DNA from: an uncultured Candidatus Saccharibacteria bacterium
GTDB taxonomy: Bacteria > Patescibacteriota > Minisyncoccia > Phycocordibacterales > UBA9973
Direction of reading: 5' to 3'
Assembly: GCA_964362545.1 (NCBI GenBank)
Contig: CAYIEM010000001.1
Location: 17,424-81,423 of the forward strand
DNA length: 64,000 bases
The position numbers and the translations under genes are program-made. How positions within the stretch are numbered: the stretch's first letter is position 1; every line of letters begins with the position of its first letter. This document shows, piece after piece, positions 531 through 60,744 of this stretch. Below the pieces are notes generated by a model. That model worked only from the letters and a program-made list of their open reading frames with translations. It was not told the DNA's origin and ran no database searches.

Positions 531-3524
531 TTACTCAGATAATATATTGATAAGTCGGTTTTTCACGTAAATCACCTTTTTTATATTTTTGCCGATGTAT
601 TTTAAGACATTCTTGTCGGTCATGGCCTTGGCCTTCACATCATCCTCTCCATCACTATCTTCTATCATAACCTCAGCTCGCCATTTGCCATTTATTTGGA
701 CTACGATTTTGATTTCGTCATCTCTTATCAAACTCTCGTCCCACTTCGGCCACTTTGAAAAATGAACGCTTTTCTTCTCTCCTAAGTCGAACCATAAATA
801 TTCAGCCACATGCGGAGCAAACGGAGTTAATATCTGTAAAAATTTCTTGTAATCTTTCGCGTCTATGTTTTCTGCTTTTTCCATTTCCGTGGCAAGTATC
901 ATCATTGCGGAGATAGCTGTATTGAAACGCATGTTTTCTATGTCCTCTGAAACTTTCTTGATGGTTTTGTGTAGAAGTTTTGGAAGAAGAACAGGCAAAG
1001 GATTTTTAAGAGTCGTGGGTCCCCTGTCCTCATGACTCCGAGGGCGAAGACTCGGAAAATCCTTTGCCTGTTCTTCTTTTACTTTGTGCCTAATCCTCCA
1101 AACCTTTTCCACAAACCTTCTTGAGCCAATGATGCTCTCCGTGCTCCATGCTACCGATTCATCAAAGGGCCCCATAAACATTTCATAAATACGTAAAGTG
1201 TCCGCGCCATAAATCCTGACAATATCGTCCGGATTTATCACGTTGCCCAGAGACTTCGACATCTTTACCCCACCTTCTCCTAAGATCATTCCATGAGAAG
1301 TCCTCTTTTGGTATGGCTCTTTCGTCGGCACCAGCTTCAAATCATATAAAAATTTATGCCAGAAACGTGAATATAAAAGGTGTAGCGTCGTATGCTCCAT
1401 ACCTCCGTTGTACCAATCGACTCCACCTGTGCCACCTTCGCTGTGCTTCGGCGAGCCAAGCCAATATTTCAAATTTTTCTTGCTTGCAAACTCTCTGTTG
1501 TTTCTTGGATCCGTGTACCGTAAGTAGTACCAAGAACTTCCCGCCCAGTTGGGCATTGTATCCGTCTCTCTTTTAGCAGGGCCTTTGCACTTCGGACATT
1601 TGATGTTGACCCATTTCGTAATCGCAGCGAGCGGAGATTCTCCATTGTCTGTAGGTTTATAATTTTTCACTTCCGGCAGTTTTACCGGCAGATCTTTTTC
1701 CGGCACCGGTATCCAACCAGCATTCAACTTGGTAGTCGGAGTACCAAATTTGGTACTCCGACTACCAAGTGAGTCTTTCTTCGCGCAATTCTCGCAAAAA
1801 ATTAAAGGTATCGGCTCACCCCAGTATCTTTGCCTTGAAAAAACCCAGTCGCGGAGCTTGAATTTCGTGACAACTTTCCCACCGACAAACTCGGTGATTT
1901 TTTTCTTAGCTTCTGCAGAATATAGACCGTCAAACCTACCAGAATTTGCTAAAATTCCTTCGCCAGCGTAAATACTTCTCTTCCCCTGGAACGTCTCCCA
2001 GTCGCGAAGAGCAGCTTCGTTCAAAATCTTAGATATCTCTTCGGGAGTAAGCCACCTTGGTTCGTGCTTCTCTTTCTCTTCTTCGGATAGTTCCACACGT
2101 TCTCCGTTCTTCAGCTCAAAATATAGATGAGTAAAATGGACAAAACGATTTTCTTTTTTCAGAATATGATAAAACTTCTCGTGAGAACGACATAGTTCCT
2201 TCACAAGTACTGGGTTTAAATATCCGGTTTCCTCCTTTATTTCCCTGATCGCGGATTGTATGGGATCTTCCCCCGCTTCAATTCCGCCGGTTACAAATGT
2301 AATCCAATTTCCCTTCTTCCAAAACAAGATCAGGTATTTCGCCTCCGACCAATGCTTAACGATTGCATGTATGGCATTTCTCTCGACAAAAGGCAATCCT
2401 TCTTTTGGCCTATCGGTCTCACTAATATAGAACGGCTCAATAACTTCCTTTATCGTCAAATCGTATTTCCTCGCAAACTCATTATCTCTCCCATCATGCG
2501 CGGGAACAGCCATTAATGCACCCGTGCCATAATCTGCCAAAACATAATCGGAAACCCAAACAGATATCTCCTCATTGTTTGCCGGATTGATTGCTTTAAT
2601 TCCTTTCAGCTCCACTCCTGTTTTCTCTTTTTTGTCATCTGTCCTGTCAATCTCTGTTTTTCCCTTCGATTTTTTTACATATTCCGAAACTTCGTTCCAG
2701 TTGGTAATTTGTGATTTTAAATTTCCAACCATAGAATGTTCCGGCGCTAGTACCAAATACGTCGCTCCGAAAAGCGTATCTGCTCGGGTAGTAAAAACTT
2801 TGATTCGCAACTCTTGATCTTTAATTGCAAACTCGATTTCACTCCCTTCAGACTTCCCTATCCAATTCCTCTGCTGAATTTTTATTTTTTCCAAATAATT
2901 AACATCATCCAAGTCCTTATGAAGCCTGTCCGCGTATTTAGTGATCGCCAGCATCCATTGCTCTTTTTCACGCTTTTCCGTATCGCCACCACAACGTTCA
3001 CACTTGCCGTTCACAACTTCTTCGTTTGCGAGCCCTATCTTACAAGAAAGGCACCAATTTATATAAGACCTGGCCTTGTACGCCAATCTTTTTTTAAAAA
3101 ATTGCAAAAAAATCCATTGAGTCCATTTGTAATACTTTGGATCGGTAGTATTTATCTCTCGCGACCAATCAAAAGAAAAACCAAGCGCTTTAAGCTGTCT
3201 TCTGAACGTATCAGTGTTTTTTTTAGTAACGACACTGGGTTTCTTGCCGGTTTTTATAGCATAGTTCTCAGTAGGAAGACCGAAGGCATCCCAGCCGATC
3301 GGATACAATACATTATAACCCTCCATTCGGCGCTTGCGAGAAATGATATCCATGGCAGTGTTGCTCCTGATATGTCCAACATGCATTCCATCGCCAGAAG
3401 GGTACGGAAATTCAATTAGAGAATAAAATTCCTTGCCTTTGCCATTCTTCGCTTGATAAATTTTTTTCTTTTCCCATTCTTTTTGAATATTTTTTTCGAT
3501 TCTAGCGTGATTATATTCTTTCAT
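531..3524 (-). CDS. leuS: Leucyl-tRNA synthetase with an inserted Nudix hydrolase domain
   Basis: 997 aa. HIGH-type motif HVGH, KMSKS, CP1 editing hallmark TTRADTLFGATY and GTGALMAVPAHDGRD, C-terminal anticodon-binding region. Residues ~375-510 form a Nudix fold with the box GGIEAGEDPIQSAIREIKEETGY, inserted between the KYDLTIKEVI and GEGILANSGRFDGL segments. Confidence 0.9.
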   Translation of the reverse strand: MKEYNHARIEKNIQKEWEKKKIYQAKNGKGKEFYSLIEFPYPSGDGMHVGHIRSNTAMDIISRKRRMEGYNVLYPIGWDAFGLPTENYAIKTGKKPSVVTKKNTDTFRRQLKALGFSFDWSREINTTDPKYYKWTQWIFLQFFKKRLAYKARSYINWCLSCKIGLANEEVVNGKCERCGGDTEKREKEQWMLAITKYADRLHKDLDDVNYLEKIKIQQRNWIGKSEGSEIEFAIKDQELRIKVFTTRADTLFGATYLVLAPEHSMVGNLKSQITNWNEVSEYVKKSKGKTEIDRTDDKKEKTGVELKGIKAINPANNEEISVWVSDYVLADYGTGALMAVPAHDGRDNEFARKYDLTIKEVIEPFYISETDRPKEGLPFVERNAIHAIVKHWSEAKYLILFWKKGNWITFVTGGIEAGEDPIQSAIREIKEETGYLNPVLVKELCRSHEKFYHILKKENRFVHFTHLYFELKNGERVELSEEEKEKHEPRWLTPEEISKILNEAALRDWETFQGKRSIYAGEGILANSGRFDGLYSAEAKKKITEFVGGKVVTKFKLRDWVFSRQRYWGEPIPLIFCENCAKKDSLGSRSTKFGTPTTKLNAGWIPVPEKDLPVKLPEVKNYKPTDNGESPLAAITKWVNIKCPKCKGPAKRETDTMPNWAGSSWYYLRYTDPRNNREFASKKNLKYWLGSPKHSEGGTGGVDWYNGGMEHTTLHLLYSRFWHKFLYDLKLVPTKEPYQKRTSHGMILGEGGVKMSKSLGNVINPDDIVRIYGADTLRIYEMFMGPFDESVAWSTESIIGSRRFVEKVWRIRHKVKEEQAKDFPSLRPRSHEDRGPTTLKNPLPVLLPKLLHKTIKKVSEDIENMRFNTAISAMMILATEMEKAENIDAKDYKKFLQILTPFAPHVAEYLWFDLGEKKSVHFSKWPKWDESLIRDDEIKIVVQINGKWRAEVMIEDSDGEDDVKAKAMTDKNVLKYIGKNIKKVIYVKNRLINILSE

Positions 3525-3596
3525 TTTTTTACTTGCCCGTCCGAAGCTTAAGCGAAGGCGGGTGGTCGTAATTTTTCATAAATTAACCTCTTGTTT

Positions 3597-4646
3597 TCAC
3601 ATTGTTGGTTTCGAAAATGGCGGATATAGGTCTTTATCTATTATTCTCTCAAAGCAAGTCCTGCCTGTCTCGTGTTCCCAGGATTCGTTTATCCCGCCAC
3701 CTGGATAAGGATAAGAAGTCGCGATATCCCTTCCGCCGTAATCCATCATTGGTACAACTCCGCCGCCTTTATATTCTATCCATCCTTTCGGTATCGGTAG
3801 AGCAAAAGTCGCGCAAAGCTCAAACTTTAATTTGTCCTTTACCGCATATTCGTAAGTTTTTCCTTTTTCAAATTCTGGATCAATCGGCAGAGAGTATCCT
3901 GTAAGCGGGTTAGCCAAGTCGGACAATTTTTCCGGAAGTTTTTCCTTTAATTGCCAATAATTTATCACTTGATATTGAATGCCCTGCAGATCTCCCACTC
4001 TCCTGTCGTCAAACCTTAGCAACCTTTGCTTCGCAGGACTTCCCATGACTAGAAAACTACAGGAAATAGCCACGACTACGAATGCAATCCCCAATACACC
4101 TAAGATTAGACTGGCTTTAGACGAAACATCTTTCCCTTTAAGCACAAATATATGATAAATACCAATCAAAGCTACAACCGCAAGCACAACTATTACTTTC
4201 AAAATGAATCGCGTGGTCACCTCGCCGGAAACAAAGTACTTTATCAAGGCGACCAAGTCTACCATGGTCACGATGGCAGACAGAAATAATATGATATATA
4301 CTATCCATTTTTTTATAACTTCATCTACGGAACCCATCATTCCTCTGGCAAACTTCCTCCAGAAACGAGAAACAATCAAATAGACAGGGAAAAATATAAT
4401 GAGTGTGGCTAGAGCCATGCGGATACTCTCGTATTCATAGGTGGAGTACCCATACTGATAACTCGCATTTAAAACGTCCGGGAACTTCTTATTTAAGGTC
4501 TCGAAAACTAAGTTAAGGAAAGAAGTGACAGAAGTTATTAATGTTATTAATAATCCTAGAGACAAGAAAAAGAAACCTGCACTCATTCCTCGCCTACCGG
4601 TAGGTAGGTTAGGCTTATCCACTTGCAAATTTTGTTGTGTTTCCAT
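3597..4646 (-). CDS. Hypothetical multi-pass membrane protein with Gly/Pro-rich C-terminal soluble domain
   Basis: 349 aa ORF with at least 5 hydrophobic helices in the N-terminal 200 aa. C-terminal domain (...GGGVVPMMDYGGRDIATSYPYPGGGINESWEHETGRTCF) has no recognised family. Confidence 0.45.
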   Translation of the reverse strand: METQQNLQVDKPNLPTGRRGMSAGFFFLSLGLLITLITSVTSFLNLVFETLNKKFPDVLNASYQYGYSTYEYESIRMALATLIIFFPVYLIVSRFWRKFARGMMGSVDEVIKKWIVYIILFLSAIVTMVDLVALIKYFVSGEVTTRFILKVIVVLAVVALIGIYHIFVLKGKDVSSKASLILGVLGIAFVVVAISCSFLVMGSPAKQRLLRFDDRRVGDLQGIQYQVINYWQLKEKLPEKLSDLANPLTGYSLPIDPEFEKGKTYEYAVKDKLKFELCATFALPIPKGWIEYKGGGVVPMMDYGGRDIATSYPYPGGGINESWEHETGRTCFERIIDKDLYPPFSKPTM

Positions 4647-4683
4647 ATTTTATAGTATATCATATCTCCGTAATATAATTAAT

Positions 4684-5034
4684 ATGAGAAAAAAGTTTGA
4701 GAACTTTTCAAAGAAACTAACTCACTGGATTGGCTCGCCCCAATCTATTATTTTACATACTATTTTTTTTGTGGGAATATTTTTTTTGAGATTTTTTAAT
4801 TTCTCTTCTTCCGATGTTCTTCTGATTTTAACCACAATAGTTTCGCTCGAAGCTATATATCTTTCTATTTTTATACAAATGACTGTAAACAGGCATACAG
4901 AGGAGCTCGAAGAGGTATCCGAAGATGTGGAGGAAATACAAAAAGATGTCGACGAGATTCAGGAAGACGTCGAGGACATAGTAGAAGACATGGAAGAAGA
5001 AGACAGGACGAGGGTCATAGAGGATGCCAGATAG
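4684..5034 (+). CDS. Small 2-TM membrane protein with acidic coiled-coil tail (DUF1003-like)
   Basis: ATG at 4684 (MRKKFENF...) avoids the overlap with the upstream convergent gene. Two hydrophobic helices, then EELEEVSEDVEEIQKDVDEIQEDVEDIVEDMEE. The segment LSIFIQMTVNRHTEE resembles the DUF1003 core. Paralog at 39478-39924. Confidence 0.45.
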   Translation: MRKKFENFSKKLTHWIGSPQSIILHTIFFVGIFFLRFFNFSSSDVLLILTTIVSLEAIYLSIFIQMTVNRHTEELEEVSEDVEEIQKDVDEIQEDVEDIVEDMEEEDRTRVIEDAR

Positions 5035-7856: not shown

Positions 7857-8072
7857 CTACACTAGTTTTTTCAACTCTTCTTCGTATTTTTTCATCACTT
7901 CCATTCCGGCCGTATCTTGATCCATTCCACTTTTTACTTTTGCTTGTATTTCTTCTGCGATAGTTTTGAAAAGCTCCGGATTTTTCTCCATCATCTTTAT
8001 AAACATATCAATCTGCGCTTCCGGCACACTCTGTTTGGCAAGCATCTTTTTTAATAAATAATTTTTAAACAT
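7857..8072 (-). CDS. Hypothetical small K/E-rich helical protein
   Basis: The ORF track ORF 7857-8201 overlaps the upstream gene. Internal ATG at 8070-8072 (MFKNYLLKK...) gives a non-overlapping 71-aa product. No homology recognised. Confidence 0.3.
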   Translation of the reverse strand: MFKNYLLKKMLAKQSVPEAQIDMFIKMMEKNPELFKTIAEEIQAKVKSGMDQDTAGMEVMKKYEEELKKLV

Positions 8073-8094
8073 AAAACCAGTATAGCATAAATTT

Positions 8095-8937
8095 TTATTC
8101 CAATATCTCAAAATCACTTCCTGGACTTTCTCCTCGGGGTTGTTGCCTGTTGCGGTAACGAATGTAGTATGCTGCGCCTGCACCGATTCCAGTGAGAACA
8201 ATTAGTCCGACAACGCTAGACCATAGATTATTCGCTGTATCCAAATCGTTCTCGATAACCTCTGCTAATAAATTTTCAGCCGGTATCTCCATTTCTTTTT
8301 TTGGCAATTCTTCTATTGGTAAAACTTGCTTTTCTTTTTTGATAGAAACTTGAACATCTTTCTTTGGAGCATCCACAGTTTTGGGTATTTTTATTGAAGC
8401 AGGGCTCGGAGTTGGAGTTTTAATCGGTTCGATAATTTTATTCTCCATCCCTGGAGTAGGCGAAGCGGCAACCCAAAAATTTACTTTTCTTTGTAGAGAT
8501 TTACCATCTCCTTTAGCCCCCAAGGAAGAATTGTAAACATATTGATCAATAATATTTAAATCTTTGTCTTTGAGCGCCAAAGTTTCCCCACTATTGCCTA
8601 ACGAGAAAGTCGAATCGAAGATAGTTCCAGAAAAACTAGGCCAATCTGCCCTAAATTTAACCGGATTAGAAGCAATCACCGCATAGCTCTGCGCCTCGAT
8701 ATTTTGATTTCCCTGAAACAAAATGAGTTTGTGATTCGTGTCCGCTTCAAAAAATCTATAAGATGCTAAGTCCACTGACACATTCCCATTATTGAATATT
8801 TCGATCCACTCTCTACCATCGTCGGTACCTGTCTTTAGATCATACATTACTTCGTTTATCAAGAGTTCGGCCTGCGCTAGATTGAAAGAAAAAAATGCAA
8901 TAAGTCCTAAATGAAATAAAATTGTTTTCCTAAACAT
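8095..8937 (-). CDS. Membrane-anchored lamin-tail-domain (LTD) protein
   Basis: Signal peptide (MFRKTILFHLGLIAFFSFNLAQA), LTD signature LLINEVMYD...GREWIEIFNNGNVSVDLASY...GETLAL, Pro/Thr linker, C-terminal TM helix plus basic tail. Confidence 0.6.
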   Translation of the reverse strand: MFRKTILFHLGLIAFFSFNLAQAELLINEVMYDLKTGTDDGREWIEIFNNGNVSVDLASYRFFEADTNHKLILFQGNQNIEAQSYAVIASNPVKFRADWPSFSGTIFDSTFSLGNSGETLALKDKDLNIIDQYVYNSSLGAKGDGKSLQRKVNFWVAASPTPGMENKIIEPIKTPTPSPASIKIPKTVDAPKKDVQVSIKKEKQVLPIEELPKKEMEIPAENLLAEVIENDLDTANNLWSSVVGLIVLTGIGAGAAYYIRYRNRQQPRGESPGSDFEILE

Positions 8938-8953
8938 ATGCTATAATAATAAC

Positions 8954-9973
8954 ATGAATAAGATAGACTTCTTGGCGATCGGGGACACAGTGATAGACGC
9001 CTTTATTAAGTTGAAAAAAGCCGATATTCTAGGTGAACCGGACAAGCCAGGATACGAGATTGCTCTGCCTTTCGGAGAAAAAGTGGAATATGAGGACGTT
9101 TTCGTGATTCCGGCTGTAGGCAATGCGGCGAACGCGGCTATTGCCGCCGCGCGACTTGGGCTATCAACAGCAATCGTTACAAACCTAGGCGATGACCGCG
9201 AGGGAGAAGATTGCCTGAAAGAATTGAAGCGCAGCATGGTCAACACCGAGTTGGTAAAAATTAACAGCGGCAAGAAAACCAATTATCACTATGTGCTGTG
9301 GTATGGCGCGGAACGCACGATTTTAATCAAACACCAAGATTATGACTATACGATGCCCGACGTGGGTTCGCCTTCCTGGCTTTATTTTAGTTCTGTAAAT
9401 GAGACCGCCTTCCCTTTCCATTATGTAATCGCCGATTATTTAGATTCTCATCCGGAAATAAATTTCACATTTCAACCGGGCAAATTTGAAATTAAGCTCG
9501 GATACGAAAAAATGGAACGCTTTTACCGCCGCGCGAAAATCTTTTTCTGCAACGTAGAAGAGGCAGAAAAAATTTTAGGATTGCAGAGTATAGGCGAGAG
9601 GCACGAGAATCCGACAGAGGGCGTAAAAGATTTACTCGCAAAAATGCATGATCGGGGTCCCGAGATAGTCGTTATTACCGACGGGCCGAAAGGCGCTTAT
9701 GCTTTCGACGGCAAAGAATACCTTTTCATGCCGATTTATCCGGATCCTAAACCGCCCTACTCACGTACCGGGGCGGGTGATGCCTTTGCTTCGACGACCA
9801 CCTCGGCACTTGCCTTAGGTAAAACTCTACCTGACGCCTTGGCTTGGGGAGGCATCAACTCCATGGCTGTGGTACAACAAGTGGGCGCCAACGTCGGCCT
9901 CCTCTCTCGTAAAAAGCTGGAAGAATATCTCAAAAACGCGCCGGAGGGTTATAAACCAAAAAAGTTGACTTAG
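8954..9973 (+). CDS. PfkB-family carbohydrate/nucleoside kinase
   Basis: 339 aa, ribokinase-like fold with anion-hole motif TGAGDAF near C-terminus and N-terminal GDTVID-type motif. Confidence 0.75.
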   Translation: MNKIDFLAIGDTVIDAFIKLKKADILGEPDKPGYEIALPFGEKVEYEDVFVIPAVGNAANAAIAAARLGLSTAIVTNLGDDREGEDCLKELKRSMVNTELVKINSGKKTNYHYVLWYGAERTILIKHQDYDYTMPDVGSPSWLYFSSVNETAFPFHYVIADYLDSHPEINFTFQPGKFEIKLGYEKMERFYRRAKIFFCNVEEAEKILGLQSIGERHENPTEGVKDLLAKMHDRGPEIVVITDGPKGAYAFDGKEYLFMPIYPDPKPPYSRTGAGDAFASTTTSALALGKTLPDALAWGGINSMAVVQQVGANVGLLSRKKLEEYLKNAPEGYKPKKLT

Positions 9974-10034
9974 ATATACTGAGCGTTGTATTATTAAAGA
10001 GTCGAAATATAAGATTTTAAAATAAACAAATTTT

Positions 10035-10205
10035 ATGGCTATAGAATCAACTCCCGAAAGTAAAAAAGACCTGCTGGAGAGAATAAATGTAGAAATACAA
10101 ATGTACGAGGATGAAATAAAGAAGAGAGAAAGTAGAGGAGAAGATGTTTCGCACCTTAGAGTAAGCTTAGAAAGTTTAAGAGAACAGGCTGGAAAACTAA
10201 AATAA
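10035..10205 (+). CDS. Hypothetical 56-aa coiled-coil protein
   Basis: Hand-translated ORF not in track: MAIESTPESKKDLLERINVEIQMYEDEIKKRESRGEDVSHLRVSLESLREQAGKLK*. Followed 30 nt later by an intrinsic terminator. No clear SD. Confidence 0.25.
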   Translation: MAIESTPESKKDLLERINVEIQMYEDEIKKRESRGEDVSHLRVSLESLREQAGKLK

Positions 10206-10234
10206 GAAGACTGCAAAAGAACAACGAAAAAAAA

Positions 10235-10261
10235 CCGGCTAGCTTAGCCGGTTTTTATTTT
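10235..10261. terminator. Bidirectional rho-independent terminator
   Basis: Stem CCGGCTA/TAGCCGG with 3-nt loop, A8 run upstream and TTTTTATTTT downstream. Lies between the convergent small ORF/PfkB unit (+) and the transposase (-). Confidence 0.6.
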
Positions 10262-10339
10262 CAGCACTCTTTTCACCGCCTTTTTGATATCCTTCACCCC
10301 CATGCCGTAATGCTCGATGAGCTCATCCAGCTTGAACTT

Positions 10340-10358
10340 GACAAGGTTAAACCTTGTC
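10340..10358. repeat. REP-like 19-bp palindrome copy 1 (GACAAGGTTAAACCTTGTC)
   Basis: 9-bp stem GACAAGGTT/AACCTTGTC around a single A. Overlaps the 3' end of the transposase gene. Confidence 0.8.
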
Positions 10359-11075
10359 CGCGTTGTTGTCCGCGCTGTCTTCGTTAGCATCCTTAAACTT
10401 CAGCCATTCCTTTACAAAATCTCCAAAATCCAACTTGGAGCTAAAGTATTCTGGAAATTCCGATACGTCAATAATTTTGCTTTCTACCCTACTGACCCCA
10501 GCGAGATCCAAGTAACTGGAATATCTATATTCGCTCAGGTATTTTTCCGATTCATGCAGATTTTTAATTCCATTCTCTTTCCACTCAGGGTCGATTAATT
10601 TAACTGGATTTAAGTTTATATAAGCAAAAAGATATTTCAAATATTCGTCTTTCGTCACATGCTTCGCCTTAAAAGTACCTTGGAAAAGCGAACCATTTCT
10701 GTCGTTCTTCTTGTTGAAATACATCGTGTAAGCTGTTTGCAATTTTTGCATGAACTTACTAACCCCATTGTCTACCCTCTCTTTAATCAATAAATGAAAA
10801 TGGTTTGGCATCAAACAAAATGCGCCTATACTAACCAATGTTTCTTTTCTATCCATTTGAAAAATCTCGGACAAGGTTAAACCTTGTCTTAACTGGTCGC
10901 CAATATCCACCCTTTCGTAACTGTTGCATGAGTAAAGCAGAACCAGAAAACGCGAGTAATCATTCGCGTTTGTAAAAATTTTCCTTTTATCAGTACCTCT
11001 GTTATATAGATGGTAATATTCGCCTATTGAGAATTCCAAGTTTCTTGTCATGCATACATGATAACTAAAAAACAA
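10347..11075 (-). CDS. IS200-like / REP-associated tyrosine transposase (Y1 HUH, COG1943)
   Basis: EYYHLYNRG...DYSRFLVLL...AFCLMPNHFHLLIKE (HUH motif)...MQKLQTAYTMYFNKKNDRNGSLFQGTFKAKHV...YINLNPVK. Start may be the internal MTRNLEF. Confidence 0.75.
   Translation of the reverse strand: MFFSYHVCMTRNLEFSIGEYYHLYNRGTDKRKIFTNANDYSRFLVLLYSCNSYERVDIGDQLRQGLTLSEIFQMDRKETLVSIGAFCLMPNHFHLLIKERVDNGVSKFMQKLQTAYTMYFNKKNDRNGSLFQGTFKAKHVTKDEYLKYLFAYINLNPVKLIDPEWKENGIKNLHESEKYLSEYRYSSYLDLAGVSRVESKIIDVSEFPEYFSSKLDFGDFVKEWLKFKDANEDSADNNADKV
10870..10888. repeat. REP-like palindrome copy 2, inside the transposase coding sequence
   Basis: Exact 19-mer. Encodes RQGLTLS in-frame within the tnp ORF. Confidence 0.8.
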
Positions 11076-11081
11076 GATTTT

Positions 11082-11100
11082 GACAAGGTTAAACCTTGTC
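11082..11100. repeat. REP-like palindrome copy 3
   Basis: Exact 19-mer immediately upstream of the tnp start and abutting the tkt C-terminal-subunit stop. Confidence 0.8.
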
Positions 11101-12099
11101 CGGTTTATTTCGATCGAGGATTTTATGCGCTGCTTTTTGGATGTCCTTCACCCCCATTCCGTAATGCTCGATGAGTTCGTCGGGTGTACCGGACTGGCCG
11201 AATTTGTTTTGCACCCCGATGAATTCCATCGGCACCGGGTAATTTTGCGCGAGCACCTCGGCAACTACGCTCCCCATGCCGCCGGAAACTTGGTGTTCTT
11301 CGACTGTAATAATCGCTTTGCACTCTTTTGCCAAAGCTATGATGGCTTCGTCGTCTGTCGGCACGATTGATGACAGATTCATTACTTTAGTTTTTACACC
11401 TTCCGTCTCCAATTCTTTAGCCGCGAGCATCGCGCGGTGAACAAGCGCGCCGGTGGCGATGATTCCGACATCTGCTATCCCGACATCCGGAATCCAAAAT
11501 ACCCGCGCCTTGCCTATTTCAAAAGGAGTTTCTTCAGTAGTTATGATAGGTGTCTTCTCTCGAGCCAGACGCAGGTATGCCGGCTTTTTGGTTTTAGCGA
11601 GAACAAGCGTCACCTTTTTTGCCTCTATGCTATCGCACGGGCTAAGCACATCCATATTGGGAAGCACTCGCATCAGCGCGATGTCTTCAAGCGCTTGGTG
11701 CGTGCCACCATCAGGACCCACAGAAATACCCGCGTGCGAACCGACTATCACCACCTTTCTGTCGTTGTAAGCAATCGTCGTCCTTATTTGTTCCCAATTG
11801 CGCCCTGGAGAAAACATCGCGTAAGAAGAACAAAAAGGAATTTTACCCATAGCGGCCATCCCCGAAGCCACAGTCACCAAATTCTGCTCCGCCACACCTA
11901 CTTCAATAAATCTCTCCGGAAATTTTTCTTTGAAAAAATGCATTTGCGTAGACTCCGTCAAATCCGCGCAAAGCGCCACCACATTTTTATCCGCCTCTCC
12001 TGCCAACACGAGTCCCTGCCCGAAACCTTTGCGAATAGGCGCCTGTTCGCAGTCTTGATTGAAAATCTTCGGATTTAATTTTAATGCTGGGTTTAACAT
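11089..12099 (-). CDS. tkt: Transketolase, C-terminal (pyrimidine-binding) subunit
   Basis: 336 aa. FGQGLVLAGEADKNVVALCADLTEST...IEVGVAEQNLVTVASGMA, typical split-Tkt subunit B. Confidence 0.85.
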   Translation of the reverse strand: MLNPALKLNPKIFNQDCEQAPIRKGFGQGLVLAGEADKNVVALCADLTESTQMHFFKEKFPERFIEVGVAEQNLVTVASGMAAMGKIPFCSSYAMFSPGRNWEQIRTTIAYNDRKVVIVGSHAGISVGPDGGTHQALEDIALMRVLPNMDVLSPCDSIEAKKVTLVLAKTKKPAYLRLAREKTPIITTEETPFEIGKARVFWIPDVGIADVGIIATGALVHRAMLAAKELETEGVKTKVMNLSSIVPTDDEAIIALAKECKAIITVEEHQVSGGMGSVVAEVLAQNYPVPMEFIGVQNKFGQSGTPDELIEHYGMGVKDIQKAAHKILDRNKPDKV

Positions 12100-12222
12100 G
12101 TTGTTTGTTTAGTTTTTTGAAATATACTTTTCACAGGGGTTTGGCGAGCATCGGCGAGCCAACTTCAGGAATTTTTATGCTTCAAAAATTCCGTACCGGA
12201 GAAAAGTGATATTTCAAAAAAC

Positions 12223-13098
12223 TTACTGATGCTCACTCCTAATTTTACCGCCAAGCGTACGCAACTCTTCTAATGCAATCTTTGCTTCATCTTTGTTTGG
12301 TGTTTTACCATGCCAATGATAATCTCTGTCAAATTCTTTCACTCCTTTACCAGGGATGGTTCTCGCTATCAATACGGACGGTTTTTCAAAAACTGCCTTC
12401 GCTCGCTCTATCGCGCTATTTACCTCTTCAAAGTCATGCCCGTTTACCTCCTGTGCATGCCAGCCAAATGCTTCGTATTTCAAGACCAAGTCGCCAAGAG
12501 GCATTATGTCTTCGGTGTAACCATCTATTTGAATATTGTTTCTATCCACTATCACTATCAGATTATTTAATTTTTCCTTGGACGCCAAAAGAATAGCTTC
12601 CCAGGTGTTCCCTTCATCGTGCTCGCCATCGGAAAGTAGTGCATAAATATATCTCTCGGAATTTCTATCTCTATCGATCCTATCCGCGAGTGCCATGCCT
12701 ACCGCTTGCGAAAGCCCAGCACCTAGCGGTCCAGAGGAAGTTTCAAGCCAAGGCATGTATTCCCTATGTGGATGACCTTGAAGTCTAGTACCAAACTTGC
12801 GCAAAGTCTTCAATTCTTCTATGGGAAAATATCCTGCGTGCGCCATAGTCGCGTATAATACCGGACATATATGCCCGTTTGAAAGCACCAATCTGTCGCG
12901 CTCTTCCCCAATAGGACTTCCTAGCGGATTTTTAGGGTCGTGTTTCAAAACATGAAAATAAAGAAGAGTAAAAATATCAGCCATACCGAGAGGTCCCGCC
13001 GTATGCCCACTCCCGGCTTCTACCAACATCTCAATAATGCTTTCTCTAATGTCGTTAGCTTTTATCTCTAGCTCCTGTATTTTTTCTTGAGTTAACAT
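12223..13098 (-). CDS. tkt: Transketolase, N-terminal (TPP-binding) subunit
   Basis: 291 aa. GSGHTAGPLGMADIF, GHPH, DGEHDEGNTWEA motifs. Confidence 0.85.
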   Translation of the reverse strand: MLTQEKIQELEIKANDIRESIIEMLVEAGSGHTAGPLGMADIFTLLYFHVLKHDPKNPLGSPIGEERDRLVLSNGHICPVLYATMAHAGYFPIEELKTLRKFGTRLQGHPHREYMPWLETSSGPLGAGLSQAVGMALADRIDRDRNSERYIYALLSDGEHDEGNTWEAILLASKEKLNNLIVIVDRNNIQIDGYTEDIMPLGDLVLKYEAFGWHAQEVNGHDFEEVNSAIERAKAVFEKPSVLIARTIPGKGVKEFDRDYHWHGKTPNKDEAKIALEELRTLGGKIRSEHQ

Positions 13099-55774: not shown

Positions 55775-58700
55775 CTAAACCGTTGGCTTTATCATCTTTT
55801 CAATAAATTTAATTTCATCTTTCGTTAATTTATACTTTTTATATAATTGCTTATCAATTTCTCCTATTGATTGTTTCCAGTCTATATCTGATTTTGAAGT
55901 AAAATCTTGAAGCGGAACAAATTGGTATACATTTTGAAGAACATTCTGAGAAGTTTTTAAAATGCCCACCATGTATCTAAAAAATTTTGTTTTTATGTAA
56001 GATGCAAGAGCGAGGGCTTCAAGTTGTGTATTAAACTGACCAATTGGAATCAATGAATCTGTGCACACAGATTTTGGTCCAGCTAAATATGGTTTACCCA
56101 AGATTGAGACTTCTTTTTTGTCTGTTAATAACCCAGCACCTCCATTACCTTTAGAAATGAAAATTTTCCATTTATCAGCTAAATTAGTGTTTTTAGTAAT
56201 GTATTTTTTTTCGACGTATCTAATTTCTTCATACTTACATCTTAATTTATAGTATTTATCCTTCTTTTTGTTTGTCGATATTTTTTTTGTGTCTTTACCT
56301 AATATACCAAATGCATTTCTACCTTTTGTAATATTTGTTATAGACTTAAAATCATTACTTTTTACTTTGCTTATTATATTGTGACTAAAACTACTACTTA
56401 GAATTATATCAAGACCTTCTTCAAATAAAGGGCGTTTTTTAGTAATAAAATTTTGCTCATCATAAAACTCAGTGAATTCAACATCTCCTCGATATTCTGG
56501 ATTATACAAAAAGTAATTAACACCACCACTGATCTCTACATCTGGAAAAACTTTACTCGAGATTGGAATATTAACAATACTTTGTAAATGATTATTTTCT
56601 TTAAAAAACTCTCTCAGCCTTAAAAACGATTTGTCTTGCGCATCACCAGTAAACCATCGCGACGGAGTAACCAACGATAAATATCTTGGATTAAGGCCAA
56701 TTGACATTTTAATGAAATCTGGAAAAATCTGTCTACTTAAAGATTTATTCTTTGAATTATTACTAATTGTCTGCTGGTATGGTGGGTTTCCCACAATTAC
56801 ATCAAATTTCATATAGTTATTGTTTATTATAACACTTTCATTCTTGATTAGTTCATCTTCTTCAATCAACTCATAAGACGTAATATTTTTTTCGATGTGT
56901 TCGATATTTAATTCTAGCAGAGCATATACTTTTCTTGTAAATTCATAGGCTATCTTAGATGTGGGGATAGAATAAAAATTATTTGCTACATCTTTACCAA
57001 ATTTCTTATATACAGCGTAGATAAATTCACCTCGTTTTGAAGCGATATCAAGTAGTTTTGTAGATTTACTAATTGCTTTTTCTGGTAATGTGCTAATGAT
57101 TTTATCTGCCATAAATTCAGGAGTTACAATTTCAGAATCAGACAAACGACTAAATTTTTTCAGAGCATTACTTGCTCTTTCTACTGGTCTAATGGTTGAA
57201 TCGTTTGCTAATGAATTTATATTGTGAATTTTGTAATCCAACTCACTGAGCACAAATGGATTGATATGTTTTTGAAACAAAGTAAGTATATTTTTACTAA
57301 TTCCTATATTTGAAACAATACGCACATTCTTTTCATCACTTTCAATTGCATGGATTACATCTTGGAGTGATTTGATTCTTGAATCAGTAAGGAGCGCAAA
57401 AAATAATATTTTAGCGTAGTACATCGCAAACTTTTTCTTATAATCTTCTTCTAAACCGTTTTCATCTGCGTCAGATTTTTTATCCAGCTCATTTGTTTGC
57501 GTGTTTTCTTTTACAACTTCTCCGAGGTCAATATCATCGCCTTCACCTTCAGCAGATTTGACTTCTAATCCCTGCCTTGATCCTATCTCATTTTGTCTTT
57601 CAATTTCAGCTTTAATTTCATCTATATTTAATAGAGAAAGATCCACCCCAATTGAGGTTGCCTCATCAATCACACTTCTATTACTTGAGTACTGTCTTAC
57701 TGCATCAATAATATTTGCTGGTTGGATTTCTACGATTTTATTTTTGTTTAAAACAATAATCGGAGATATGGCGAGTTCTCTTCTGATTCTTTCTTCCAAC
57801 TTAGAATTGCCATTCGATTCTATGTTTACATTATAAATTTGAGACTTATGCTCCTGCATTTCAAACATTCTGTTTGGATTAAAATCCACAAGGAGCGTTT
57901 GAGGCTTCATATTATATTTCACCGTGTCACCACCTTGTTCTTTATAAACTCGTACATACTGATTCTGCAGACGGAATATTGCTTGATCATATTCCTGAGG
58001 TGATGATGTATCTTTGAAATACAACATTGTATCCCATTCTGGCACCGTGCTCCCTGTGAGCATTCTGTTCACCGTTAACGTGATTGTTTTTATATCTTTA
58101 TTTTCACACTCTTTAATCTTTAATTGTACCGATTTGATATCTTTATAATTCTTATCACCATTAACACCTGAAATATTTATAATTTTATATTTACCAAGAT
58201 TTTTGAATGTATTCTTTTTAATTAATTCTTCTAACGCGTCACACGATGCTCTGAAAGGCAATACGCAGATAATATGACGACACATGTTACCTTTTTTTAA
58301 TTTATCGTAGTCAAGAAAACTTAATATATTTTCATCTTCTTTTGATCCGTCTATTACCTTTAATAACTCAATTATTTCTTTTTCGTGTTCAAATTTTTTA
58401 TGTAAATTATTTTTTGTATCTTTAGTTATTGATATAGGTTTAAATAATACAGAAAATGTGTAGGTAATACCATTTCTTTTAAATTCCTCCATTTTTTTAC
58501 GTGAGGACTCATTTGGATTAAATGCGAATCGAACCATCTGCGGAAACCCATAATATGGATTATCCCATTCTTTTACTTCGTCTTTATGTAGATTGTCTCT
58601 ATCCCATCTCTCTTGATCTTCTGCAATATTCGAAAACTGATAGAAAGCAATAATGTCTTCATCTGTAAATTCACTATTCATCAAAATCCGATATGGTGTT

Positions 58701-59740
58701 CCAGAGAGATGAAGGCGAACCTTAGCATTAATTGTTTTTATTGTTTTATCTAAATCATCTAAAGTATTATCAGCTAACTTTAGTTCATTTTTCATCTCTT
58801 TTACTGAGAGTGGATATTTCAATACCTTTCCATACTGTTCTGCTCGTGCACCAAAATGAGTTTCATCAATAATCAATAGATCAATTTTATTATCGAATAT
58901 TTCTTTATGTTTTGACTTTATTCCATCACCTTGTAAATCTTGCAATGTTAGAAACAAAACAATTTTTTCTTTTGCTTTCTGCTTATCTTTTACTATTGTT
59001 TTACCTTGCAAAAGATCCTTGCTATCTAGAAAACTATAGCCAGTAAATTTTTTATGACTTTCTACTGTTCTTTTCCATTCTTCTTTCACATCTGCTTTTG
59101 CAGATACAACCAGTACTAGATTTGTTGACATTTCAACCGCACAACACATAGAGGTGAACGATTTACCAAATCGCATCACCGCATACATCAATAAGTTAGT
59201 TCGTCCCTTGGTCAAAGCCTCCTTAAATCTATTTATAGTTGCTTGCTGATTTGGTCTTGGGTCATAATCTTCATCTCTTGCGTATGTATGAAAAACAGGA
59301 ATACGGCTTGTATCAAATTTGTAGTATTGATATTTATTCTCTTTATTCTTATGATTTTTTTTAATGTCTTTAATTGCACCAATCAGATCATTTTTTGAGG
59401 TATTTTTAAAAAATTCCTTAGAATAATATGGAGCTTTCCTAAGACTATCTGGAAGAAGCCGTTCTTTTTGTAGTTCTTTTTCGAGGTAATAATGAACAGC
59501 ATGATCTCTAAAAAAAGTTTGATCATCAACTTTTGCAACCTCATCAAACTTTTTTTCTAAATTAGGAAAATACTTTCTCCACTCACCAAGTCGTGTCTCA
59601 AGTGGACGATAGGTATCACCAATTTTTATATAATTAGGAATTATCTCTGTAGTAAACGCGTAAATCCTTGGTTCAACTCTCCCAATAATAATATGATCGA
59701 GTACGCTTACATCAATTTTGTTTAATTTTTTCATATCCAT
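55775..59740 (-). CDS. Single-chain restriction-modification-like enzyme: T5orf172/GIY-YIG-like N-domain + SF2 helicase + N6-adenine DNA methyltransferase + C-terminal (TRD-like) region
   Basis: 1321 aa. N-terminal IYAFTTEIIPNYIKIGDTYRPLETRLGEW (T5orf172-like). Helicase motifs MRFGKSFT (I), LLIIDETHFGA (II, DExH), LHLSGTPY (III). MTase motif IV VIVGNPPYQQ at about aa 985 with about 330 aa following. Confidence 0.6.
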   Translation of the reverse strand: MDMKKLNKIDVSVLDHIIIGRVEPRIYAFTTEIIPNYIKIGDTYRPLETRLGEWRKYFPNLEKKFDEVAKVDDQTFFRDHAVHYYLEKELQKERLLPDSLRKAPYYSKEFFKNTSKNDLIGAIKDIKKNHKNKENKYQYYKFDTSRIPVFHTYARDEDYDPRPNQQATINRFKEALTKGRTNLLMYAVMRFGKSFTSMCCAVEMSTNLVLVVSAKADVKEEWKRTVESHKKFTGYSFLDSKDLLQGKTIVKDKQKAKEKIVLFLTLQDLQGDGIKSKHKEIFDNKIDLLIIDETHFGARAEQYGKVLKYPLSVKEMKNELKLADNTLDDLDKTIKTINAKVRLHLSGTPYRILMNSEFTDEDIIAFYQFSNIAEDQERWDRDNLHKDEVKEWDNPYYGFPQMVRFAFNPNESSRKKMEEFKRNGITYTFSVLFKPISITKDTKNNLHKKFEHEKEIIELLKVIDGSKEDENILSFLDYDKLKKGNMCRHIICVLPFRASCDALEELIKKNTFKNLGKYKIINISGVNGDKNYKDIKSVQLKIKECENKDIKTITLTVNRMLTGSTVPEWDTMLYFKDTSSPQEYDQAIFRLQNQYVRVYKEQGGDTVKYNMKPQTLLVDFNPNRMFEMQEHKSQIYNVNIESNGNSKLEERIRRELAISPIIVLNKNKIVEIQPANIIDAVRQYSSNRSVIDEATSIGVDLSLLNIDEIKAEIERQNEIGSRQGLEVKSAEGEGDDIDLGEVVKENTQTNELDKKSDADENGLEEDYKKKFAMYYAKILFFALLTDSRIKSLQDVIHAIESDEKNVRIVSNIGISKNILTLFQKHINPFVLSELDYKIHNINSLANDSTIRPVERASNALKKFSRLSDSEIVTPEFMADKIISTLPEKAISKSTKLLDIASKRGEFIYAVYKKFGKDVANNFYSIPTSKIAYEFTRKVYALLELNIEHIEKNITSYELIEEDELIKNESVIINNNYMKFDVIVGNPPYQQTISNNSKNKSLSRQIFPDFIKMSIGLNPRYLSLVTPSRWFTGDAQDKSFLRLREFFKENNHLQSIVNIPISSKVFPDVEISGGVNYFLYNPEYRGDVEFTEFYDEQNFITKKRPLFEEGLDIILSSSFSHNIISKVKSNDFKSITNITKGRNAFGILGKDTKKISTNKKKDKYYKLRCKYEEIRYVEKKYITKNTNLADKWKIFISKGNGGAGLLTDKKEVSILGKPYLAGPKSVCTDSLIPIGQFNTQLEALALASYIKTKFFRYMVGILKTSQNVLQNVYQFVPLQDFTSKSDIDWKQSIGEIDKQLYKKYKLTKDEIKFIEKMIKPTV

Positions 59741-59741
59741 T

Positions 59742-60740
59742 TTAACTCTTAAGAAGTTCTATGAATGTAATCTCTCGACCTTTTTTCCCATTAACTGACC
59801 AATCTTTTATTACACAATATATACCATTATGTTTTTTAATATCATTATTAGTACAACCTAAACATTTTGACTTACTAACAGTTTTTCCTCCAAAAGTGTC
59901 AATAGTTGTACTACTTTCTTCTTTACAAGAATTAGGAATTACACCCTTTAATCCGTCCATTTGCCATACATTCCAAGAGATAATATTTGCGATACTTTTT
60001 ATTGATTTAACTTCTGGATTTTTCCCAAACTTCAAAGCATAATTTTCAATGAAAGTATACAGCATCGCTTCTCGTGCTAGCAATAAACTGTCTCCCTGCC
60101 ATTCATATCCATAGATGCTTTGGTAAGCAATTTGAGCTGCACTAGCCCATTCTTTAAGAGAACTTACATTTTCATTAATAATTCTCAATTTTCGATCTAA
60201 TATTCCAACTCTTTCTTTCACAGGAATAAATTTTCCTGTGGTTGTATCGTATCTACTTGTAATATATGGAGCTTCGCCACAAGCTATTTCTAGACGCATG
60301 TCCTTTACGTAATCTCTCCACGTCTTATTTTTAGGAAAAATTATTTTTTTAAAATTTGTTTTCCATTTCAGACCACTGTCAGATAAATCAGTTTCTTTAT
60401 TAAAGAGATCTTTTCTTTGAAACCAAGCATTGTCAACTTGATTATTTTGAGCATTACATATCCAGGCTGGAGTATAGACCTCTGCCATATTTTTGATTCT
60501 AGTATTTTGAAGAGTTTTATTCTTCAAAACTCTAGGCATTATCACCTTATTATTTTTTCCCGTAATCAAGCCTATCTTAATAAGTGATAGAAATTTATAA
60601 TCATCACCAAGATACTGGTAATTATCAGTGGCCCAAAAAATATTCCTATTTGTTGTTTGGTCACACAACAGGATATTAAGTACTTCTGGATATTTTTTTA
60701 AGATGTCATTTTCGAGGATATCTGTTTCACCCTGTTTCAT
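59742..60740 (-). CDS. Hypothetical 332-aa protein in defence operon
   Basis: Co-directional. 1-nt spacer to the downstream RM gene and 4-nt spacer to the upstream GmrSD-like gene. No recognised motifs. Confidence 0.35.
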   Translation of the reverse strand: MKQGETDILENDILKKYPEVLNILLCDQTTNRNIFWATDNYQYLGDDYKFLSLIKIGLITGKNNKVIMPRVLKNKTLQNTRIKNMAEVYTPAWICNAQNNQVDNAWFQRKDLFNKETDLSDSGLKWKTNFKKIIFPKNKTWRDYVKDMRLEIACGEAPYITSRYDTTTGKFIPVKERVGILDRKLRIINENVSSLKEWASAAQIAYQSIYGYEWQGDSLLLAREAMLYTFIENYALKFGKNPEVKSIKSIANIISWNVWQMDGLKGVIPNSCKEESSTTIDTFGGKTVSKSKCLGCTNNDIKKHNGIYCVIKDWSVNGKKGREITFIELLKS

Positions 60741-60744
60741 ATAT

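Follow-up and report, generated by a model that had tools for sequence, protein, structure and literature searches.

Aminoacyl-tRNA synthetases (aaRSs) are among the best-studied enzymes, and domains added to them have repeatedly brought new biology in the form of editing, signalling and regulation. Here we describe a leucyl-tRNA synthetase (LeuRS) that carries a Nudix hydrolase domain inside its CP1 editing domain and is encoded on a 64,000-nt stretch of contig CAYIEM010000001.1 (assembly GCA_964362545.1, from an uncultured Candidatus Saccharibacteria bacterium); this whole stretch is called the window below. The bacterial LeuRSs of known structure, from Thermus thermophilus (Tth; 1H3N and 2BTE) and Escherichia coli (4AQ7), have the same fold and domain order as the query protein and share with it the HIGH, KMSKS and T-rich motifs, the conserved Asp, the CxxC zinc pairs, the anticodon-binding domain and the C-terminal domain. 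Unlike them, the query has a Nudix domain in place of the loop Tth 364–375, lacks the leucine-specific domain and possesses extra loops at aa 585–606 and 820–843.

On the Nudix side, the insert is best compared with the asymmetric hydrolases of diadenosine tetraphosphate (Ap4A) and other diadenosine polyphosphates (ApnA), such as Aquifex aq_158 (3I7U), the lupin (1F3Y) and Caenorhabditis elegans (1KT9) enzymes, human NUDT2, CT771 and Ndx1. These are among its best matches by sequence and fold, are single-domain Nudix proteins of similar size and, like the insert, have a canonical box; residue 452 of the insert may correspond to the aromatic residue of their X-loop region. The insert, however, is only 19–24% identical to them, is embedded in another enzyme and has its own set of residues (R382, K456, N459, R460, H487 and W491). 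A MutT/Nudix family protein from Enterococcus faecalis (2AZW) is free-standing and 19% identical, and its PDB entry, which gives no function, offers no clue to the substrate. A precedent for joining a Nudix domain to a maker of adenylylated products is NadM-Nudix, the nicotinamide mononucleotide adenylyltransferase/Nudix protein (NCBIfam NF003785–NF003791), which the query matches weakly. That protein is an end-to-end fusion of a Nudix domain of the ADP-ribose pyrophosphatase type with a different partner, whereas the query has an insertion within a domain. Similarly, an isoleucyl-tRNA synthetase with a GNAT domain (NF040702, ileS_w_GNAT) is a curated example of a class Ia aaRS with an added enzymatic domain; both the synthetase and the added domain are different, and the query scores 72 bits against the cutoff of 1999.

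No curated model for a LeuRS with a Nudix domain was found among the NCBIfam matches of the query, and a full-text literature search turned up no paper on a Nudix domain within LeuRS or another aaRS. A clan-wide survey of Nudix proteins does not mention tRNA synthetases or ligases (PMC5389931). The architecture is thus seemingly undescribed: a known enzyme and a known domain, in a combination that is clade-wide and positionally plastic. The relatives are already public, often named merely 'class I tRNA ligase family protein', a bare annotation that the Nudix insert explains and that suggests the need for a dedicated family model.

The Nudix insert and its host enzyme

The limits of the insert were taken from an alignment to T. 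thermophilus LeuRS (1H3N). Residues 1–363 of the two proteins are collinear, and the alignment picks up again at query residue 518, equivalent to Tth 376. An earlier note, made from the DNA sequence alone, had placed an inserted Nudix domain at nt 1995–2402; the location stands, and the extent is slightly wider, 154 aa encoded by nt 1974–2435. As that note had expected, NUDIX (PF00293) matches aa 404–500 (53.2 bits in context, E = 4e-14, and 57.8 bits for the insert by itself, against a Pfam gathering score of 21.1), with a stretch of the PF13603 editing domain on either side, and all the peptides it had quoted lie at the places it gave in the 531–3524 (−) translation. The box that it had called near-canonical, GGIEAGEDPIQSAIREIKEETGY, indeed fits the Nudix motif GX5EX7REUXEEXGU as stated in PMC10148737, save for the last position, where Tyr replaces I/L/V. 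Structure prediction gives the Nudix fold with very high confidence whether the insert is modelled by itself or within the whole protein: a model of the insert has the alpha/beta/alpha arrangement of the Nudix fold and a predicted local distance difference test (pLDDT) score of 96.6, and in the full-length AlphaFold2 (AF2) model the 10-residue block means of the Nudix segment are 88–96, among the most confident parts.

For comparison we used the 120 best LeuRS relatives (52–77% identity) from NCBI, ENA, JGI and Logan; where taxa are named, they are Paceibacterota, Nomurabacteria or Minisyncoccia. Mean identity to the query is 46% in the insert, 68–79% in the Rossmann-fold and CP1 regions of LeuRS and 61% in the C-terminal region. 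Within this variable insert G413, G414, E428, E432, G434 and W491 are nonetheless invariant, and E431 is found in 119 of the 120. R382, K456, N459, R460, E483 and H487 are conserved at 93–99% (K456 in 119 relatives, N459 in 119, R460 in 112, H487 in 114), and F451 is present in 106. Position 452, 17 residues past the Nudix box, is aromatic, with Tyr in 84, Phe in 31 and Trp in 4. About eight subfamily-specific residues in all reach 93% or more. E428, E431 and E432 correspond to the metal ligands of the Nudix helix. Such strict conservation of catalytic and subfamily-specific residues within an insert of 46% identity is, as read from the alignment, a signature of selection on the active site, and the pattern favours a domain that is catalytically active and has a defined pocket for its ligand.

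The host protein, a single open reading frame (ORF), exceeds the curated equivalog cutoff of the NCBIfam model TIGR00396 leuS_bact (930.3 bits against 548.4), and Pfam recognizes in its 997 residues the class I catalytic domain, the PF13603 editing domain in its two stretches (203 bits) and the anticodon-binding domain. HIGH, KMSKS, the editing motifs and both zinc-binding CxxC pairs are all present and show no variation across the aligned relatives (n = 91); the invariant residues include H48, G50 and H51 of HIGH and T245, T246, R247, T250, G333–G335, H343 and D344 of the editing site. The claim that the CP1 editing domain was intact is borne out, FTTRADT and GTGALMAVPAHD being present and invariant in these 91 relatives. 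Judged by its motifs, the host therefore appears to be a functional LeuRS that can also edit. The full-length AF2 model has a pLDDT of 85 and a predicted TM-score of 0.76, with CP1 well folded, and it superposes on the solved bacterial LeuRS structures with target-normalised TM-scores of 0.78–0.83.

The leucine-specific domain that precedes KMSKS in Tth is absent: query residues 750–754 align to Tth 580 and 637, and Tth 581–636 are unmatched. The sequence at this place (window 1251–1280, aa 750–758) is GMILGEGGVKMSKS. This domain, found in Tth and E. coli and not universal, is a variable rather than a defining feature of LeuRS. Between the catalytic core and the anticodon-binding domain lies a segment of 24 residues, AKDFPSLRPRSHEDRGPTTLKNPL (window 996–1067, aa 820–843), which is predicted to be disordered (pLDDT ~38) and is weakly conserved among the relatives.

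Spread and insertion sites of the Nudix subfamily

The earlier note had proposed a survey of LeuRS orthologs from the Candidate Phyla Radiation, and this turned what had seemed a one-off fusion into the norm of a clade. All 120 closest relatives have an insert of 146–167 aa at the canonical position, and 119 of them have a precomputed PF00293 match. A scan of species-representative genomes, which was seeded with eight close sequences and is biased towards close relatives, gave 39 loci. Their metagenome-assembled genomes (MAGs) carry the labels Nomurabacteria, Paceibacterota, Staskawiczbacteria, Moranbacteria, Saccharibacteria or 'Patescibacteria group', and at 35 of the loci one continuous leuS frame encloses the Nudix match. 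The Nudix-in-LeuRS architecture is common to hundreds of related genomes and is the norm in a large clade of Patescibacteria.

A word-indexed search with the insert alone returned only two fragments; exhaustive searches of representatives and searches with an alignment query were used instead. With the insert as query, an exhaustive HMMER search over 1.84 billion representatives yielded 558 proteins at E ≤ 1e-3, of which 188 reach E ≤ 1e-10. Most of the best 150 representatives are flanked by LeuRS sequence, on either one side or both, while about 30 are proteins of 150–190 aa that start with Met and end without a LeuRS flank. In the fused forms among these 150 the recognisable partner is always LeuRS, with no other aaRS or housekeeping protein seen. 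A profile search of a named database added about 90 free-standing proteins (35–58% identity, on contigs of up to 214 kb), annotated as 'MutT (NUDIX family)' or 'NUDIX hydrolase' and once as 'leuS'. The insert is a member of a distinct Nudix subfamily, centred on Patescibacteria, with free-standing genes of about 160 aa as well. In place of LeuRS, a few subfamily proteins carry unassigned N-terminal sequence, an additional Nudix domain of generic type or a tail resembling alpha/beta hydrolases.

Free-standing homologs adjoining leuS, which would be a signature of fission or fusion, were not found; the neighbours are MurL/PhoD-like genes, HAD/cupin-like genes or thrS and miaA. In one abundant lineage a free-standing copy lies 70–90 nt upstream of thrS, in the same orientation, with miaA just beyond: directly after thrS in L045–L047 and one gene further in L003–L005 (at about 8001–12300 in all of these loci). 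This Nudix-thrS-miaA synteny is kept between two 90%-identity clusters whose threonyl-tRNA synthetases are 78% identical; as deep evidence it was downgraded, since the two clusters belong to one lineage and count as one observation. The copy next to thrS and miaA is thus a second link of the subfamily to aaRS and tRNA genes, in a single lineage. At the same loci a gene for a Nudix–RNase H (RVT_3) fusion lies about 5 kb downstream.

We placed 296 subfamily domains from 272 proteins on query coordinates by means of their flanks, which were lacking for 43 of the domains. About 219 domains are at the canonical site, after aa 363. Another 16 follow aa ~206, just ahead of the CP1 linker, some as two in tandem, and 13 follow aa ~237, within CP1 just ahead of the T-rich motif; one is found after aa ~580, past the first CxxC, and four near aa ~650, by the second CxxC. 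The subfamily thus occupies at least five LeuRS loops, with one to three copies per protein. Twenty proteins have two copies (nine of them among the 120 close relatives) and two, P0123 and P0124, have three, while in P0142, P0126, P0231 and L035 the domain is solely at a non-canonical site. Copies at non-canonical sites are often nearest to canonical-site copies of other proteins (for example, at 68% identity), and the domains at sites ~206 and ~237 each fall into at least three unrelated groups; repeated duplication or re-insertion therefore appears to have occurred.

Two types of Nudix box can be told apart. The canonical type (Glu419/Arg427; GX5E..RE..EE.G) is found in 95 of the 120 relatives, and a variant type, with Gln419 and without Arg427 (GX5Q..[A/M/L/T]E..[E/Q]E.G), in 23; both keep R382, F/Y452, K456, N459, R460, H487 and W491. 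Multi-copy LeuRSs usually pair one canonical with one variant domain, a pattern that hints at a catalytic domain partnered by a pseudo-enzyme, or at dimer formation within one molecule. The query LeuRS has a single copy with a canonical box. The relatives behind the observation of two types are P0028, P0050, P0066, P0072, P0074, P0076, P0085, P0101, P0109, P0123, P0124 and P0143.

The history of the insert appears to be only loosely tied to that of its host. When the 120 relatives are compared pair by pair, identity in one half of the LeuRS core correlates with identity in the other at r = 0.55, as against r of about 0.1 (Mantel p = 0.004) between insert and core, and mean core identity is flat, at 0.72–0.75, over all bins of insert identity; the comparison uses identities, and the narrow range of core identity (standard deviation, SD, 0.04–0.05) limits its power. 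The nearest neighbour of a variant-type insert is another variant in 21 of 23 cases, as opposed to only 11 of 23 for the host LeuRSs. Taken at face value, these patterns would mean that LeuRS genes have exchanged their Nudix cassettes with one another or had them replaced.

The same loops hold other cargo in some relatives. At the ~237 loop this is a DUF559/MTES_1575 nuclease, alone or with an alpha/beta hydrolase of the Ser-hydrolase type or a nucleotidyltransferase-like domain (P0019, P0056 and P0062), or a Ham1/ITPase-like domain (P0073, aa 250–390); the ~580 loop holds Ser_hydrolase domains (P0076 and P0089) or an unassigned domain of ~130 aa (P0072). In P0177 a HAD_2 domain (aa 385–539) directly precedes the Nudix domain at the canonical site. 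A HAD–Nudix gene pair in Staskawiczbacteria was considered as the counterpart of this tandem module and rejected, the two HADs having no significant similarity. The LeuRS of this clade is evidently tolerant of insertions, with a cargo of mostly small nucleotide or ester hydrolases. In P0019, P0042, P0045, P0047, P0056, P0062, P0088 and P0112 the DUF559/MTES_1575 nuclease, of the PD-(D/E)xK type, is in frame after query aa ~234–240; being the constant element, it suggests a homing-endonuclease-like origin of these cassettes. The multi-site, multi-copy and host-decoupled spread of the Nudix domain amounts to a natural experiment on which LeuRS loops tolerate insertions of 150 aa, and to a possible case of mobility at the level of domains.

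Proposed activity and competing explanations

What the inserted domain does can be approached from its conserved residues and its nearest relatives. From the invariant E428, E431 and E432 we infer a metal-dependent pyrophosphohydrolase activity, and Mg2+-dependent hydrolysis is predicted because every metal-binding residue of the Nudix box is kept. Searched singly against PDB sequences, the insert is closest to the Ap4A hydrolases of Aquifex, lupin and C. elegans (E values between about 2e-4 and 8e-4). When the family profile is used, the lupin Ap4A hydrolase comes first (1e-7), followed by AvrM14, NUDT12, DIPPs and Dcp2, and the nearest solved sequences and folds are altogether rich in ApnA hydrolases (lupin, Aquifex, C. 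elegans, human, Chlamydia CT771, Thermus Ndx1 and Rv2985). The specificity tyrosine of ApnA hydrolases sits in the X-loop region (PMC5389931), where the conserved aromatic residue 452 would also fall, judging by its position in the sequence.

The reading that we prefer, and hold with evenly balanced confidence, is that the insert is an autonomous module tethered to LeuRS, a Mg2+-dependent pyrophosphohydrolase of a dinucleoside-polyphosphate or nucleoside triphosphate (NTP)-like substrate. A complete, autonomously folding Nudix domain sits in a surface loop of CP1, the synthetic and editing sites being intact, and would cleave a nucleoside-polyphosphate compound, at best guess Ap4A-like or NTP-like, into a nucleoside monophosphate and the remainder. 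The purpose of the tether would be to have a self-contained enzyme co-expressed with, and located at, the translation apparatus that generates such by-products. The substrate is probably not handed over directly from the LeuRS active site: such channelling is hardly likely to be required, given that any of five loops will do as well and that the domain also exists free of LeuRS.

The synthesis of Ap4A by aaRSs and its degradation by Nudix enzymes are both established (PMC10148737), and the earlier note had proposed that the fusion couples aminoacylation with the clearance of Ap4A or diadenosine triphosphate. Clearance of Ap4A is plausible by sequence likeness and compatible with the ApnA hydrolases among the best matches; the coupling part of that proposal is weakened. 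If Ap4A-type by-products or alarmones were degraded, an enzyme class that makes Ap4A would here, for the first time, be covalently joined to the hydrolase, and this would give a handle on nucleotide housekeeping in the genome-reduced, host-dependent Patescibacteria.

Several observations weigh against this proposal. ApnA hydrolases lead other Nudix subfamilies by only a small margin, and the best match by fold is a protein without a known function. The decapping enzymes AvrM14, NUDT12 and Dcp2 also rank high in the profile search. No curated NCBIfam Nudix subfamily could be assigned to the insert, every model being far under its cutoff: the RppH, NudB, MutT and NudI models give 14–26 bits against cutoffs of 95–259, the best being NudB and RppH (19–26 bits, cutoffs 103–259), and the MutT 8-oxo-dGTPase models (TIGR00586/NF008044) 17–18 bits against 98–148. 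About one-fifth of the relatives have the variant box (E419Q, R427 lost), and in these catalysis is possibly reduced or altered. To our knowledge, LeuRS is not a notably strong producer of Ap4A, which leaves the choice of LeuRS unexplained by Ap4A. Free-standing homologs in Kaiserbacteria-like and Staskawiczbacteria genomes adjoin unrelated genes, without an aaRS neighbour. Homologs away from leuS, the use of five loops and the presence of unrelated hydrolases in the same loops together weaken the case for a catalytic coupling specific to LeuRS.

These last points also invite a different explanation, namely that the domain is a passenger, one of several hydrolase modules that have settled in permissive loops, where it would be harmless or mildly useful for housecleaning and unrelated to leucylation, its spread reflecting domain mobility or recombination instead of selection for a task tied to LeuRS. 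The five sites with one to three copies, the nearness of non-canonical copies to canonical ones elsewhere, the unrelated groups at sites ~206 and ~237, the near lack of correlation between insert and core (r about 0.1, against 0.55 for the core halves), the clustering of variant inserts in scattered hosts, the DUF559 nuclease, Ser-hydrolase, Ham1, HAD and nucleotidyltransferase-like domains in the same loops and the free-standing copies mostly without an aaRS neighbour all fit such a picture. A mere passenger would not, however, be expected to appear in the best 150 representatives with LeuRS alone wherever the flank is recognisable, to conserve its catalytic and subfamily-specific residues strictly when embedded and to be kept in nearly all members of a deep clade; the insert boundaries have no DNA-level repeats, and the decoupling test is of limited power. 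We consider this explanation unlikely, if worth keeping in mind. A related and bolder view, similarly doubtful in our estimate, sees LeuRS of the Paceibacteria-type Patescibacteria as a landing platform for in-frame cassettes of enzymatic domains, with one Nudix subfamily moving repeatedly across at least five LeuRS loops and from genome to genome, largely apart from the host gene; the frequent pair of canonical and variant domains could then be an intramolecular catalytic/regulatory dimer that might tie an Ap4A-like alarmone to proofreading or charging; if true, it would represent a new mode of domain mobility within an essential gene and a new form of aaRS regulation.

Alternatively, the domain might act on an RNA terminus in the manner of RppH or a decapping enzyme (on 5′ triphosphate, NAD or Np4A caps) or, more speculatively, on the tRNA end held by the editing domain, for instance removing a 3′-pyrophosphate added by a toxin. 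AvrM14, NUDT12, Dcp2 and DIPP among the best PDB profile matches, RppH models among the best NCBIfam matches, weak as these are, the location of the insert within the domain that binds the tRNA 3′ end and the one free-standing homolog beside thrS and miaA, both tRNA-handling genes, are in line with this idea. On the other hand, the RppH/NudH models (NF001934–NF001938; equivalog cutoffs 116–259) give only 13–24 bits with the insert and 15–27 bits with its free-standing homologs, with 19–27 bits for the RppH models overall. The insert is not basic (24 Lys and Arg against 27 Asp and Glu), and the domain also occurs at loops outside CP1 (~206, ~580 and ~650), at odds with a need for the tRNA 3′ end. 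Mature tRNA 5′ ends, moreover, carry monophosphates. An RNA-end substrate is, in our view, distinctly unlikely.

A further alternative, which we regard as quite improbable, is that the domain, chiefly in its variant type, binds a nucleotide signal such as Ap4A or guanosine tetraphosphate (ppGpp) and tunes LeuRS editing or aminoacylation allosterically, hydrolysis being secondary or serving to reset the switch. Nudix-fold regulators without catalysis are on record (PMC5389931), most of the insertion sites lie within or beside the mobile CP1 domain, and the typical pairing of the two box types in multi-copy LeuRSs, both with the putative ligand-contacting residues R382, F/Y452, K456, N459, R460, H487 and W491, would suit a sensor. 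Yet the single copy of the query is fully canonical, even the variant type keeps all three metal-binding glutamates without exception, and sites ~580 and ~650 lie outside CP1.

That the insert is the product of a frameshift, a mis-assembly or a chimeric contig, an outcome that the earlier note had named as fatal to its claim, can be dismissed as next to impossible: LeuRS is in frame on both sides of one continuous ORF, no GC step or other compositional break and no direct or inverted DNA repeats were found at the insert boundaries, the AF2 model is confident over both junctions and the architecture recurs in 119 of the 120 relatives from four databases and in 35 independent species-representative genomes, the sole oddity being a perfect palindrome about 200 nt from the insert, off its boundaries.

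This 44-nt palindrome (window 1727–1770, within leuS codons ~586–600) consists of two 22-nt arms that directly abut. None would be expected by chance, and since it occurs only once in the window, it was rejected as a repeated mobile element. The first arm encodes LGSRSTK, also found in the closest relatives P0002 and P0003, and the second, its exact reverse complement, encodes FGTPTTK, which both of these lack. The likely origin is either a recent inverted duplication, in frame and adding 7 codons, or a fold-back artefact of the assembly; the loop that the palindrome encodes is disordered in the model (pLDDT <50 at aa 589–596). In L010, a species-representative MAG (leuS frame 2825–4690), the Nudix-containing frame ends after 622 codons, without an in-frame C-terminal LeuRS part; a frameshift, a pseudogene or a split gene may lie behind this.

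Coordinates and other genes of the window

Table 1. Parts of the LeuRS–Nudix protein and the free-standing Nudix genes, in window coordinates (nt)
Feature	Residues (aa)	Position (nt)	Strand	Basis or remark
leuS, 997-aa bacterial-type LeuRS with embedded Nudix domain		531–3524	−	single ORF, TIGR00396
HIGH motif of the synthetic active site, here HVGH	48–51	3372–3383	−	translation
CP1 editing domain, N-terminal part	219–363	2436–2870	−	PF13603 positions 1–143; Tth alignment
T-rich editing motif FTTRADT	244–250	2775–2795	−	translation
Editing motif GTGALMAVPAHD, including conserved Asp344		2493–2528	−	translation
Inserted Nudix hydrolase domain, 154 aa	364–517	1974–2435	−	takes the place of the 12-residue CP1 loop Tth 364–375
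Nudix box GGIEAGEDPIQSAIREIKEETGY, putative catalytic metal-binding helix	413–435	2220–2288	−	regular expression and translation
Subfamily-specific strand FYHILKKENR	451–460	2145–2174	−	aromatic pair 16–17 residues past the box, with K456, N459 and R460
HEPRW	487–491	2052–2066	−	conserved His and invariant Trp of the subfamily
CP1 editing domain, C-terminal part, and return into the catalytic core	518–560	1845–1973	−	second PF13603 stretch; aligned from Tth 376 on
KMSKS motif	754–758	1251–1265	−	translation
Anticodon-binding domain	850–957	654–977	−	PF08264, 75 bits
Free-standing Nudix gene, 172 aa		46823–47341	−	adjacent to the next
Free-standing Nudix gene, 155 aa		47394–47861	−	adjacent to the previous

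The source genome encodes at least three Nudix domains. The two free-standing Nudix ORFs of the window were considered as paralogs of the insert subfamily and rejected, scoring 27 and 22 bits with the subfamily hidden Markov model as against 210; the shorter is weakly NudI/MutT-like (51 bits, cutoff 95). With these two further, unrelated Nudix genes in the genome, the LeuRS insert is not simply the sole MutT of the cell. An Rfam scan of both strands of positions 1–64000 gave no family at its gathering score and no tRNA, rRNA or riboswitch match. Near the end of the window, at 55775–63207 on the minus strand, lies a defence-type gene cluster consisting of a 1321-aa protein with a ResIII helicase and an Eco57I methylase domain, a 332-aa ORF and an 820-aa protein with Mrr_N and GmrSD_N domains.

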